A stretch of DNA of 43,783 bases, taken from contig JAKLEJ010000001.1 in assembly GCA_022711695.1 (NCBI GenBank), positions 1 to 43,783 of the forward strand, written 5' to 3'. How positions within the stretch are numbered: the stretch's first letter is position 1; each line of letters begins with the position of its first letter. Positions 32,518 to 43,783 of this stretch are shown one piece after another. The stretch is from Verrucomicrobiota bacterium (GTDB lineage Bacteria; Verrucomicrobiota; Verrucomicrobiia; Limisphaerales; JACRJZ01). The position numbers and the translations under genes were made by a program. Below the pieces are notes generated by a model. It was not told where the DNA came from, searched no databases, and was given only the letters and a program-made list of their open reading frames with translations.

Positions 32518-32964
32518 CTATTGCAGGAGGCCTCGGATGCGGCTGACCTCTTGCAGGACCGCCGGGCTGGCGAGTTCTGCCGATCGGGGCTGAACGCGGG
32601 CGTCGAAGACCGATCTCGCCATGTTCGCCGCCTTGCCCCGGGCCTCGGCGGTTTGCTGGTCGGCGGGAAGGCGGTCGAATCGGGCCAGGGCCGCGGCGGC
32701 GTCCCGATAGGCTGACCACACAAACTCGGGAGCAACCGACCGCCGGCTCCATGCCAGGACGCGCCGCTGGTCGGCGGCGCAAAACGCCGACAGCGGCAGG
32801 GTCAGCGTGGCGCCGTTGGTTCTGGCCAGGGTCACGGTGGCGCCGTCGAAATGCTCGAGGTTTCCTTGGATGACCTTGGCCGCCTGGTTCGTCCACAATT
32901 CGGCCCAGGCGCGTTCAGCGGCCAGGAGCAGCAGCAACGCCAGAATGCGGCCAATCATGATCAT
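32518..32964 (-). CDS. small secreted protein with SHD1-like motif (148 aa)
   Basis: ATG at 32964. Signal peptide MIMIGRILALLLLLAAERAWA. The string ELWTNQAAKVIQGNLEHFDGATVTLARTNGATLTLPLSAFCAADQRRV follows the bacterial SLA1-homology-domain-1 pattern (W..., G.V.L....G....vPl..LS..D). Only the last 148 codons of the 598-aa ORF-track frame are credible. Confidence 0.65.
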   Translation of the reverse strand: MIMIGRILALLLLLAAERAWAELWTNQAAKVIQGNLEHFDGATVTLARTNGATLTLPLSAFCAADQRRVLAWSRRSVAPEFVWSAYRDAAAALARFDRLPADQQTAEARGKAANMARSVFDARVQPRSAELASPAVLQEVSRIRGLLQ

Positions 32965-32975
32965 GGTCGCCTCGC

Positions 32976-33791
32976 TTACCTGGCCCGGAGGCGGAAGAAA
33001 TGCGCCGGGGCCGGGGGCTGCACGAAGAACGTCAGCGGCTGGTCGCCTCCCGCGACCGGAACCGTCGAGAGGGCGCCATCCAGCGTGAGAGAAGCCGGGC
33101 AGGAGGCCCAGGCGGGAGCACCCAGGCTTGGGCTGGATTCCAGCCAGTAGAGCACACCCGGAATCGGGCTCAGAGTGAAGCTGAGCCGGCCGTTGGGGTG
33201 CTGGGTCAGGGCGTTCATGCGCACCTCGTCCCCCGGCAAAAACGGAAAGGATCCGTAGAGGAACTCCTGATCGTCCGGCATACCGTCTCCGTCCAGGTCC
33301 CGGCCGGGCCCCACTTGCGAAAGGCTGCTGACGCTCCCCGAGCTGTTGGCGATGACCATCTGTTCCCAGGCGTCCGGCAGCCCGTCCCCGTCGCTGTCCG
33401 TTCCGAGGATCAGGTTCATGTTGACGGTTCCCCCGTTGCCCGGGGCCACGAAGGCGCTGGGGCCGATGGTGGGCTGGGTCACCGCGCCGATGCGAACCCG
33501 CACGGTTACGGTGTCCCCGGGAACCAGGTCCGCGGCGGCGGCGGTCAGCGGATCGCTGACGTTGATTTCCAGCCGGTAATTGGAGCGCGCCGGCTGAACG
33601 CTCACCGTGGTCCGCGCCAATTCGTTGGTTCCCTTGAAGGCGGAGACGATGGCGCTTCCCGGACCCAGGCGCAGGCCGTAGGTGTCGCGGATGACGCCGT
33701 GCACGATGACCGAGGGGCGCAGAGTGGAGGCGGACACCAGGCCGGCTCCGAACGCCAGCCCTGTCAGCGCGACAAGTAGTTTCATGTTCAT
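32976..33791 (-). CDS. secreted protein with thrombospondin-type-3-like Ca-binding repeats (271 aa)
   Basis: Signal peptide MNMKLLVALTGLAFGAGLVSA. It has DSDGDGLPDAWE and DLDGDGMPDDQEF motifs, beta-rich flanks, and ends ...HFFRLRAR. It starts 27 nt downstream of the giant gene. Confidence 0.75.
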   Translation of the reverse strand: MNMKLLVALTGLAFGAGLVSASTLRPSVIVHGVIRDTYGLRLGPGSAIVSAFKGTNELARTTVSVQPARSNYRLEINVSDPLTAAAADLVPGDTVTVRVRIGAVTQPTIGPSAFVAPGNGGTVNMNLILGTDSDGDGLPDAWEQMVIANSSGSVSSLSQVGPGRDLDGDGMPDDQEFLYGSFPFLPGDEVRMNALTQHPNGRLSFTLSPIPGVLYWLESSPSLGAPAWASCPASLTLDGALSTVPVAGGDQPLTFFVQPPAPAHFFRLRAR

Positions 33792-33818
33792 CGTCTTGGT
33801 TGGAAGGGCGGCAGGCGT

Positions 33819-42994: not shown

Positions 42995-43049
42995 TCGTTC
43001 TCGTTTCAAAGGAGCCGGTGGCCCCGCATTGTTCGCTTCCTGACCGATC

Positions 43050-43067
43050 GCCCGGCCTTCGCCGGGC
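43050..43067 (-). other. intergenic GC stem-loop (GCCCGGC-GAAG-GCCGGGC on the minus strand)
   Basis: A perfect 7-bp stem with a tetraloop, located between the stop of the partial upstream gene (43098) and the start of the 370-aa gene. There is no U-tract, and the function is unknown. Confidence 0.25.
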
Positions 43068-43097
43068 CCCCGCTGTGCTGTCGCTGTCGTCCCCCCG

Positions 43098-43783
43098 CTA
43101 CTGGAGCAACGTGGTCGCCGTGGACGCCCGCTGCATCACGAACCGCCCCAGGACGCCGATCGCCCGGTTGGTGGCCTCCAGCGCGCCCCCCAAGCCATAC
43201 ACGCTCTCGCGGTACACTCCCCCACAGACCGTCTCTCCCAGGCGCGGATCAGGGTTCACCTGGTCCGGCCCCTGGAACACCAGTTCGATTTCGCGCCGCA
43301 CGGAGAAGACCTCGACATCGCTGGCGTAAGGGATATCGTCCTCGGCCCGCCGCTCCTTGTTGTCGTGCAGCGGGGCAAAGGCATGGAGGAACGGATTCAC
43401 CGGGTCATTGCGGGGCACATTCACCACGCCTCGAACCGCCTGGTTCGGAACTCCGAAGGCGCCGTTCGTCAGCAGCGTCGGGGCCATGAACGGGAAGTTC
43501 GCGCTCGAAAGCCGGAACACCTTGCCCTCCGGATACTGGGCCTTGTAGGTCGAGACGCGCGCCTCCGTGGCCATCAGCTCCGTGATCACTCCCCCGTTGG
43601 TCGCGTCCGGCCGCGTCCCCACAAAGACCCGCTGCAGCAGCCGCGCCACGCCGTTGGTGTCCACATGCGCCAGCACGCGGAACGTGAACGGCCGGGCGGC
43701 CGGCCTGGGGGTCGTGGGAAGGCCAAACACCCCCGGCATCTCCAGCCGTCCCACATCCGTCACGCTCACTTCGCCCACCCACA
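43098..43783 (-). CDS. hypothetical protein, C-terminal part (5' end outside window)
   Basis: The frame stays open to the window edge. Composition is protein-like (…RVFVGTRPDATNGGVITELMATEARVSTYKAQYPEGKVFRLSSANFPF…). It is co-oriented with the giant-gene operon. No family recognised. Confidence 0.55.
   Translation of the reverse strand, partial: WVGEVSVTDVGRLEMPGVFGLPTTPRPAARPFTFRVLAHVDTNGVARLLQRVFVGTRPDATNGGVITELMATEARVSTYKAQYPEGKVFRLSSANFPFMAPTLLTNGAFGVPNQAVRGVVNVPRNDPVNPFLHAFAPLHDNKERRAEDDIPYASDVEVFSVRREIELVFQGPDQVNPDPRLGETVCGGVYRESVYGLGGALEATNRAIGVLGRFVMQRASTATTLLQ

Follow-up and report, generated by a model that had tools for sequence, protein, structure and literature searches.

A five-gene locus on the minus strand

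The window analyzed here (the whole stretch of 43,783 nt, positions 1 to 43,783 of the forward strand of contig JAKLEJ010000001.1, assembly GCA_022711695.1 of a Verrucomicrobiota bacterium) is a chromosomal fragment, 65% in GC content, from a diderm bacterium, and a cassette of five co-oriented genes, designated A, B, giant, D and E in this order, occupies positions 32518..43783 of its minus strand. The central gene encodes a protein of 2,677 amino acids (aa), whose relationship to TcA, the channel-forming subunit of the Tc (ABC) toxins, is the main subject of this study. Five minus-strand genes had been placed here by the initial annotation, and the recomputed start and stop codons agreed with it both in the coordinates and in the intergenic gaps, which were 103, 29, 27 and 11 nt in the above order. 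The genes are as follows:

43098..43783, minus strand: gene A, 3' part (the final 227 codons out of 600, the 5' end being outside the window)
41882..42994, minus strand: gene B, 370 aa, a predicted exported fibre-type protein
33819..41852, minus strand: the giant gene, 2,677 aa, a predicted remote TcA-like protein
32976..33791, minus strand: gene D, 271 aa, predicted to be exported
32518..32964, minus strand: gene E, 148 aa, a small protein predicted to be exported

The minus strand was taken as the coding one because its GC content at third codon positions (GC3) was 0.83–0.87 over the cassette (0.46–0.56 at second positions, GC2); the minus-strand translation of the giant had an ordinary protein composition. 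The plus-strand open reading frame (ORF) 34056..41930, with 2,624 stop-free codons, was rejected as a gene, being an antisense shadow of the giant that is rich in R, G, V, D and H and arises from a 65% GC gene. Shadow frames of this kind are characteristic of high GC3, and this one might be annotated as a gene by mistake. Translation of the giant starts at the ATG at 41852, its Met1 being aligned in at least 90% of 25 homologues.

Signal peptides were judged by a K/R start, the Kyte–Doolittle (KD) value of the hydrophobic 10-mer and an A-x-A-type site. The N-termini of B, giant, D and E contained one to five K/R residues, then a hydrophobic 10-mer with a KD of 2.1–3.3 and an A-x-A-type site, which bears out the signal peptide assigned earlier to each of the four complete products; the same pattern was seen again in homologues across many taxa. 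Full-length A, available on an overlapping contig, also began with a predicted signal peptide, and hence all five products carry one. This contig (L098, assembly GCA_035912815.1, a second assembly of the same organism) overlapped the window with 99.965% identity over 5,635 bp. Upstream of A it contained 861 nt of non-coding DNA followed by a divergent gene, from which it was concluded that the operon consists of exactly five genes. The divergent gene (L098:2-535, minus strand, beyond the window end) encodes a 178-aa fragment with no Pfam match and with the motif QQLNNCGAF, which presumably recalls papain-like cysteine peptidases. Rfam and tRNA scans across the whole window gave nothing.

Structure of the giant protein and its similarity to TcA

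The following parts were distinguished in the giant, with positions in the window:

41751..41852, minus strand: signal peptide, aa 1-34, MKTALKPRFRASRACLPWLAGAFLAFGFAEPGRA then QY; the cleavage site is inferred
39213..41750, minus strand: variable N-terminal third, aa 35 to ~880; many homologues match from ~881 only
39438..39887, minus strand: LamG / concanavalin-A-like jelly-roll, aa 656-805 (Pfam PF13385, E-value = 2e-11)
36951..37364, minus strand: family-invariant motif block, aa 1497-1634 (LxxLGNEAYADA, EELALLRGRD, YNRLPWNFT, YPQGHGDAWGHYL)
34824..35612, minus strand: antiparallel helical hairpin of the structural model, aa 2081-2343, a candidate pore-forming translocation channel
35241..35348, minus strand: hydrophobic Ala/Gly-rich hairpin tip, aa 2169-2204, IEAAIPAVAGFSFDIGAAVRGPVRAATAAVNAASLIG, a candidate membrane-inserting loop
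34584..35384, minus strand: profile similarity to genuine TcA, aa 2157-2423, covering the tip, the return helix and the start of the C-terminal domain
33822..34823, minus strand: C-terminal beta-rich domain, aa 2344-2677, in the position of the TcB-binding domain in TcA

The signal peptide has five K/R residues before a hydrophobic 10-mer with a KD of 2.06. The N-terminal third, presumed to be a target-binding region, swaps LamG, FG-GAP, PA14, GLEYA or SBBP modules among family members (precomputed Pfam domains), and the conserved core of the protein, as outlined by homologue matches, comprises aa ~881–2677. The LamG jelly-roll, noticed already in the initial annotation, was confirmed as the sole Pfam match of the giant (PF13385, Laminin_G_3; 44.7 bits versus a gathering threshold of 27.6), and the family profile matched LamG and pentraxin chains among the PDB sequences (E-values from 1e-9 to 1e-6). 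Searches with the giant against Pfam, NCBIfam, PHROGs, PADLOC and PDB sequences returned only LamG matches and coiled-coil noise; a full-length match to a characterized adhesin or S-layer family, which was to count against the novelty of the locus, was not obtained.

The structure of the last 1,200 aa of the giant (aa 1478–2677) was modelled with AlphaFold2 (AF2) from an alignment of 38 family sequences. The mean predicted local distance difference test (pLDDT) was 68, and values over aa 2247–2677 were mostly 80–95, with one loop near 40. The model consists of a long-helix hairpin followed by a beta-rich C-terminal domain; its helices H604-655, H664-695, H706-730 and H749-866 (numbered within the modelled segment) are 52, 32, 25 and 118 residues long, the single 118-residue helix corresponding to aa 2226–2343 of the giant. 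Although the identity is only about 25%, the spacing between the invariant residues Q2083 and R2293 was 211–217 aa in almost every one of 70 homologues. The hairpin turn contains, at aa 2169–2187, a 19-mer that is surpassed in hydrophobicity by only one other in the protein (KD 1.48), and the tip motif P-x-x-[VI]-A-G-[LF]...GGD recurs near the hairpin midpoint among homologues.

Comparison of the model with the PDB using Foldseek placed exclusively TcA subunits at ranks 1–15, namely, TcdA1 (prepore, pore and intermediate), XptA1, XptA2, TcaA-TcaB and YenTcA (E-values from 3e-8 to 3e-3, probability 0.99–1.00, 620–1,117 aligned columns), with dynein and coiled-coil noise from rank 16 onward (E-value >= 0.1). 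The alignment to prepore TcdA1 extended over 1,117 columns, with mixed model confidence upstream of the hairpin, and that to pore-state TcdA1 over more than 620. A profile of 18 giants was also compared by hhalign with a profile of six full-length plasmid TcA proteins (SepA of pADAP and those of Pantoea, Vibrio, Rhodococcus, Bacillus and Sinorhizobium), and a match of 218 collinear columns was found (probability 83.2, E-value = 8.8e-6, score 68), pairing aa 2157–2423 of the giant with residues 1989–2206 of SepA, i.e., the tip, the return helix and the start of the C-terminal domain, of which the first ~80 residues are covered. In this alignment, the tip motif of the giant falls on the SepA tip loop DMLPNIYGLAVGGSRYG, and the giant motif RYxxxFxxAxRYVYLAAKAYDYETG pairs with YYQxYDLxxxxCLxAxxAxxxExG of SepA. 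A core of 81 columns was found again with a partly independent pair of alignments; no significant match to TcA was obtained by hhalign outside aa 2157–2423. The long antiparallel helices and the hydrophobic tip loop that characterize the alpha-pore-forming domain of TcA were thus recovered by AF2, Foldseek and hhalign.

These results, together with the TcB-TcC fusion genes that follow the giant directly in a sister clade (see below), indicate that the C-terminal part of the giant is remotely homologous to the pore-forming translocation channel of TcA, and it is very probable that the giant is a TcA homologue, though no curated TcA model detects any member of the family. Two statements of the initial annotation have to be abandoned accordingly: that the giant belongs to no assignable family, given the exclusively TcA matches at ranks 1–15, the hhalign E-value and the sister-clade fusions, and that the locus contains no transporter or secretion-type element, given the resemblance of the C-terminal part to a translocation channel in both comparisons.

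Several observations weigh against this homology. The Foldseek TM-scores were 0.14–0.17, a range attributed to different domain arrangements in a multi-domain match, and the confidence of the model was only moderate overall. A reversed-alignment control in hhalign scored 57 (E-value = 1.6e-4) versus 68 for the real alignment, which indicates that helical composition inflates the score, and the hhalign match is therefore supportive, not decisive; block-shuffled controls were not clean negatives because blocks of 30 columns retain real motifs, and the reversed control was the one trusted. None of 18 diverse members matched the curated TcA models of Pfam (VRP1, Neuraminidase-like, TcA_TcB_BD, TcA_RBD and ABC_toxin_N), even at E-value <= 5, and a family-profile search of PDB sequences returned no TcA chain. 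The shell and neuraminidase-like domains would lie in aa 1–1477, outside the modelled segment.

The C-terminal domain (aa 2344–2677) is the best-conserved part of the giant, with 33 columns conserved at >=95%. The most invariant motifs of the whole family were located in the block of aa 1497–1634 (LGNEAYADA, EELALLRGRD, YNRLxWNFT and PQGHGDAWGHYL), which holds conserved His, Asp and Glu residues, has no detected counterpart in TcA and lies within model residues 41–181, where the pLDDT was 30–50. Metal binding, catalysis or contact between oligomer subunits are conceivable roles of this block.

Conservation of the cassette, its partner proteins and linked cocoon genes

Full-length homologues of the giant are 2,400–2,850 aa long. 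A profile of its C-terminal half identified at least 912 clusters at 90% identity, all of them named "hypothetical" or "LamG domain-containing", and an exhaustive search yielded 1,443 clusters at 50% identity, 801 of them at E-value <= 1e-30, the match being always at the C-terminal end of a protein of 2,000–4,900 aa. At least 577 loci were found in species-representative genomes of Verrucomicrobiota, Kiritimatiellia, Lentisphaerota, Omnitrophota and Hydrogenedentes, and the hosts include a cultured carrier, Pontiella sulfatireligans F21 (Kiritimatiellia, locus L026); the nearest named relative is an uncultured Verrucomicrobiae metagenome-assembled genome (MAG; 74%). Two records labelled Klebsiella and the record of locus L036, labelled Lewinella, are probably mis-binned contigs of the Planctomycetes–Verrucomicrobia–Chlamydiae (PVC) group.

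Gene neighbourhoods were compared in 87 fetched loci, 37 of which, drawn from the same five taxa, had enough flank on both sides to be informative. The order A - B (1–3 copies) - giant - D - (E) recurred on a single strand across the 87 loci, a variant having D placed before A, and the genes flanking the cassette were wholly different between loci. The informative loci contained A and D without exception (37/37 each), B in 34/37 (in 2–3 tandem copies in seven), E in 8/37 and a cocoon gene in 3/37. Conservation of the neighbourhood had been set beforehand as the test of the proposed assembly; because the cassette is conserved as a unit within differing flanks, the objection that homologues of the giant might be merely scattered fails, and the description of the locus as a single co-oriented cassette of exported proteins made up mostly of binding and scaffold modules is upheld. 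A functional name for any of the five proteins was not found in the sources searched.

Some genomes contained two or three paralogous cassettes (L064/L071/L074, L043/L054, L023/L073 and L050/L057), which differed within one genome in the N-termini of the giants and the tips of B, and this is consistent with target diversification. In locus L006, a 123-aa 23S_rRNA_IVP (four-helix-bundle) gene (18314-18685) sits between the giant and D. In locus L007, the cassette is preceded by a CLIPPER/lactonase-repeat protein of >4,476 aa and a PpiC-type rotamase (L007:1-7189); this locus has no B, and a Calx-beta plus lactonase-propeller protein takes the place of D.

Protein B has a conserved N-terminal module of ~130 aa (INYQGxL...LYxxxxxxxxLWG...GYFSVNLG...ATPRQQFLTAPFA); the C-terminal tip that comes after it is specific to the lineage. 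The family alignment showed that the module is shared and the tips are swappable. At other loci, B paralogues carried phage tail-collar tips (PHROG 1800/8469, E-values from 1e-16 to 1e-25), and the family profile matched solved phage tail-fibre tips (9nxk, E-value = 8e-15; T4 gp12, E-value = 6e-10). The fibre-like N-terminal module recognized in B at the outset is thus supported at the family level. The B of the window itself had no PHROG or Pfam match, tail-collar domains included, and scored 17.6 bits against NCBIfam NF053851 Bdello_MAT_N, below the cut-off of 60 (E-value = 0.0026); as many family members have tail-collar tips and this copy does not, it was interpreted as a different tip on the same stem.

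Derivation from a prophage tail or a tailocin would fit the likeness of B-family tips to phage tail fibres. Pfam recognized no gene for a capsid, sheath, tube, baseplate, terminase or integrase, PHROGs gave only LamG-type noise for the giant, A and D, and the flanks are ordinary chromosomal genes that vary by locus. With no other phage genes found, such an origin was rejected as extremely improbable, and a defence-system origin was rejected after the PADLOC search. In the window, the flank consists of plus-strand housekeeping and regulatory genes at positions 1-32448 (RND efflux, PPK2, SulP, hybrid histidine kinase, Omp85, antiporters and a beta-CASP nuclease). The hybrid histidine kinase (16295-22642, plus strand; 1,447 aa) has the architecture 4HB_MCP-HAMP-GAF-PAS-HisKA-HATPase-2xREC-Hpt and is followed by a REC-PP2C (SpoIIE) phosphatase and a STAS protein, which together make a partner-switching signalling module. 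A 773-aa ORF with no Pfam match and a coding-type GC3 of 0.81 was also noted (24091-26412, plus strand).

The window part of A was 100% identical to residues 374–600 of the full-length protein P0179, whose gene lies on L098. A is a predicted exported all-beta protein of 600 aa with a conserved DDPxNPFxHxYHPDHDN-type motif (here NDPVNPFLHAFAPLHDN). Its AF2 model (pLDDT 87, predicted TM-score (pTM) 0.75) shows an all-beta array of beta-sandwiches and a barrel, and only generic matches to Ig, Fn3, PapD, PsbO and macroglobulin folds were found among PDB and viral structures, with no match in Pfam, PDB sequences, PHROG or PADLOC. A role of A as a TcB-like propeller or mini-cocoon was rejected on this ground, the confident model matching only generic beta-sandwich and beta-barrel folds.

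D is composed of an N-terminal beta module, DxDGDG Ca2+-binding loops (aa 131–184, TSP3-like) and, at the C-terminus, a beta domain whose last residues are FFRLRAR. The TSP3-like repeats that had been read in D are borne out in so far as the DxDGDG loops are conserved in the family, the profile of which matched only EF-hand-type Ca loops in the PDB; the formal assignment to Pfam TSP3_bac (PF18884), at 24.2 bits, falls just under the gathering threshold of 25. Larger versions of D elsewhere contain Calx-beta plus a lactonase propeller, RTX, cadherin-like, LamG or Spondin_N domains. In the family alignment of E, a helical tail comes after the motif WTNxAGxVIxAxL...LPLsxLxxADQxR. The SHD1-like motif formerly proposed for E is not supported: the window copy had no Pfam match, SHD1 (PF03983) included, and among relatives it appeared faintly in 2/13 (E-value about 0.1). 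By its occurrence in 8/37 loci, E is apparently a lineage-restricted accessory.

Searches with SepB and SepC revealed TcB-TcC genes directly downstream of the giant in five loci, with gaps of 8–120 nt:

L014:14848-21768
L035:14812-21858
L023:14933-22075
L036:14258-20398
L045:4118-5878

These are fusion genes encoding 2,050–2,380 aa, the L045 copy ending at the contig end. In L014, L023, L035 and L036, the fusions contain SpvB, an FG-GAP propeller, TcdB_toxin_midN (E-values from 1e-29 to 1e-34), RHS repeats with the core and a variable payload, and in each of these four complete fusions a predicted signal peptide precedes the canonical ISLPxGPGSIEGLGESFQP start. The payload is a VanY D-Ala-D-Ala carboxypeptidase in L036 and DUF4329 in L014; those of L023 and L035 are unassigned. 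The presence of VanY may point to Tc toxins with an antibacterial action. The cocoon-bearing loci come from Verrucomicrobiota-type MAGs, and L014 also starts a second copy at 21869-22729. The cocoon-linked loci retain A, B and D, by which D as a cocoon substitute was ruled out.

On the other side of the balance, the cocoon-linked giants form one clade, and the window giant belongs to a different deep clade; no TcB or TcC (SpvB or RHS ORF) was found in the 43.8-kb window or, on the available contigs, within 8–10 kb of any window-clade locus. Genetic linkage to TcB and TcC is thus a feature of the sister clade and not of the window clade. The C-terminal domain is equally conserved in cocoon-less and cocoon-linked giants, the window giant sharing 46–52% identity with the latter in this domain versus 22–24% in the hairpin.

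Absence of TcB and TcC at the window locus would also be expected of a decaying, non-functional remnant of a Tc locus after cocoon loss. This explanation is very improbable, as the 8-kb ORF is intact with a GC3 of 0.85, dozens of residues are invariant across sequences of ~30% identity, and the family numbers 1,443 clusters, the cocoon-less arrangement being retained in many phyla. The same absence of a nearby cocoon or payload gene in the window clade, and the fact that all recognizable modules bind (LamG; in relatives, PA14, GLEYA and FG-GAP; in D-type proteins, Calx-beta, cadherin-like and RTX; fibre tips), are in keeping with a static surface scaffold or adhesin, i.e., a TcA-like fold serving as a non-injecting platform that shows LamG, the B fibres and D. 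Many free-living PVC lineages are polysaccharide degraders, and the carriers are mostly free-living PVC lineages; the role of such a scaffold, no more probable than the scaffold itself, would be to attach the bacterium to polysaccharide particles or other cells. A passive scaffold would need neither the fixed hairpin length with its maintained hydrophobic tip motif nor a docking-type C-terminal domain as the most conserved part, and the sister clade keeps a bona fide toxin cocoon beside the same A-B-giant-D set, so this explanation is considered rather unlikely.

Possible mode of action and relation to known systems

We see slightly better than an even chance that the operon encodes a Sec-exported, fibre-aimed and strongly divergent Tc-toxin-like membrane-perforating machine built around a TcA-type subunit; the confidence in this whole mechanism is lower than that in the homology of the giant to TcA. 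After export, the giant would oligomerize, as a pentamer by analogy with TcA, and its LamG region, the B fibres and the Ca2+-dependent D would direct it to the surface of a foreign cell, with the fibres docked via their conserved N-terminal module, possibly through protein A as an adaptor; it would then drive the helical channel into the target membrane. The N-terminal third of the giant, the tips of B and the C-termini of D are three independently diversifying (presumed binding) modules across lineages. Since the operon of the window clade has no cocoon gene, this clade would either dock a TcB-TcC encoded elsewhere or work as a cargo-less pore former. The former is favoured by the conservation of the docking domain, and the latter by the confinement of linked cocoons to one clade together with the 100% linkage of A and D. 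The phage-type fibre tips and the peptidoglycan-directed VanY payload of the sister clade suggest that the targets are other microbes rather than animals.

The export route is a difficulty for such a machine. Classical Tc components have no signal peptides and are released by a lysis cassette, whereas all five products here bear signals, and Sec export by itself would take them only as far as the periplasm. Oligomeric state, localization, target and activity are inferred, as are all functional statements made here, from sequence, predicted structure and gene context. Tc toxins leave the cell via a holin/endolysin cassette (PMC10847048). Queries with the holin and lysozyme of pADAP gave no match in the 87 loci, the genuine pADAP locus having both; cytoplasmic assembly without signal peptides and release by such a type 10 secretion system (T10SS, holin/endolysin), which are typical of TcA and not defining, are thus both absent here.

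The same findings, namely, Sec signal peptides on all five products, which would therefore meet in the periplasm, and a cassette encoding neither a lysis cassette nor another outer-membrane export system, could also be explained by a self-directed conduit, in which a TcA-like oligomer in the periplasm of the producer perforates its own outer membrane from inside and exports, e.g., the B fibres or D. We know of no precedent for this or anything comparable among TcA proteins; variable receptor-binding modules make little sense against the producer's own membrane, and the toxin payloads (VanY and DUF4329) of the cocoon-linked relatives imply a foreign target. A self-directed conduit is therefore regarded as quite improbable.

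Compared with the known TcA proteins (TcdA1 of Photorhabdus, XptA1/XptA2 of Xenorhabdus, SepA of Serratia pADAP and YenA1/A2 of Yersinia entomophaga), the giant is of like size (~2,400–2,700 aa) and shares the antiparallel hairpin with its hydrophobic tip loop, the C-terminal beta domain after the channel helix and lectin-type receptor-binding insertions in the N-terminal part, and one clade of its family has a TcB-TcC gene directly downstream. Unlike TcA, it escapes the VRP1, Neuraminidase-like, TcA_TcB_BD and TcA_RBD models, lies in a locus with no cocoon gene and has A and D as constant companions and B as a usual one, none of which has a Tc counterpart. The carriers also differ: known Tc loci are ~96% from Proteobacteria and ~3% from Firmicutes (PMC7861908), whereas those of the giant family belong to PVC and allied phyla. 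The sister-clade fusions resemble the TcB-TcC cocoon in the canonical domain order, the ISLPxGPGSIEGLGESFQP motif and the position immediately after a TcA-like gene, and differ from it in the Sec signal peptides and in payloads that include the peptidoglycan enzyme VanY and DUF4329.

Among fibres, B is comparable with the mosaic adhesive trimer (MAT) fibres of Bdellovibrio and with phage short-tail/tail-collar fibres of the T4 gp12 type, which likewise combine an invariant N-terminal docking module with exchangeable tips; the partner of the N-terminal domain of MAT fibres is unknown (PMC10769870). B differs from both in its size (300–480 aa) and in belonging to a Tc-like operon and not to a phage or predator invasion vesicle gene set. 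YenTc is a chitinase-decorated ABC toxin whose TcA shell carries separately encoded accessory proteins (PMC12705794), and it provides a precedent for a decorated TcA shell; in place of chitinases, the present cassette encodes a fibre, a beta-sandwich array and a Ca2+-binding protein, and their attachment to the giant is putative.

The literature searched described no Tc/ABC toxins in Verrucomicrobia, Kiritimatiellota, Lentisphaerota or Omnitrophota, and neither a Sec-dependent TcA nor antibacterial Tc toxins. Of the proposal that the locus is an undescribed system, the new partner set and the unrecognized, divergent branch stand, and its independence of known systems does not, the cassette being of the known Tc kind: it is an unrecognized, strongly divergent branch of the Tc/ABC toxins with a new partner set. 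A broader scheme is offered only tentatively, namely, that PVC bacteria possess a large unrecognized Sec-dependent branch of Tc-like injection machines with phage-type receptor-binding fibres, used against other microbes. In this scheme, the sister clade would be antibacterial and would deliver VanY-type peptidoglycan enzymes across the target outer membrane, the window clade would be cocoon-independent, with the obligatory A and D giving a docking, cargo or triggering function new to Tc, and A or the giant would anchor MAT-type fibre N-terminal domains.

Work on the Tc (ABC) toxins treats them as insecticidal and pathogen virulence factors and also as protein injectors that can be programmed, and about 1,400 Tc loci have been catalogued, nearly all from Proteobacteria and Firmicutes (PMC11435725, PMC7861908). 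The giant family is comparable in size to these catalogued loci and is invisible to the domain models used in surveys. If the interpretation is correct, Tc-type machines would extend from animal pathogens to environmental microbe–microbe interactions, with a Sec-dependent assembly route, for which a cultured, testable carrier, Pontiella sulfatireligans F21, is at hand; the joining of a Tc channel to exchangeable phage-like fibres would represent a natural retargeting solution of biotechnological interest.

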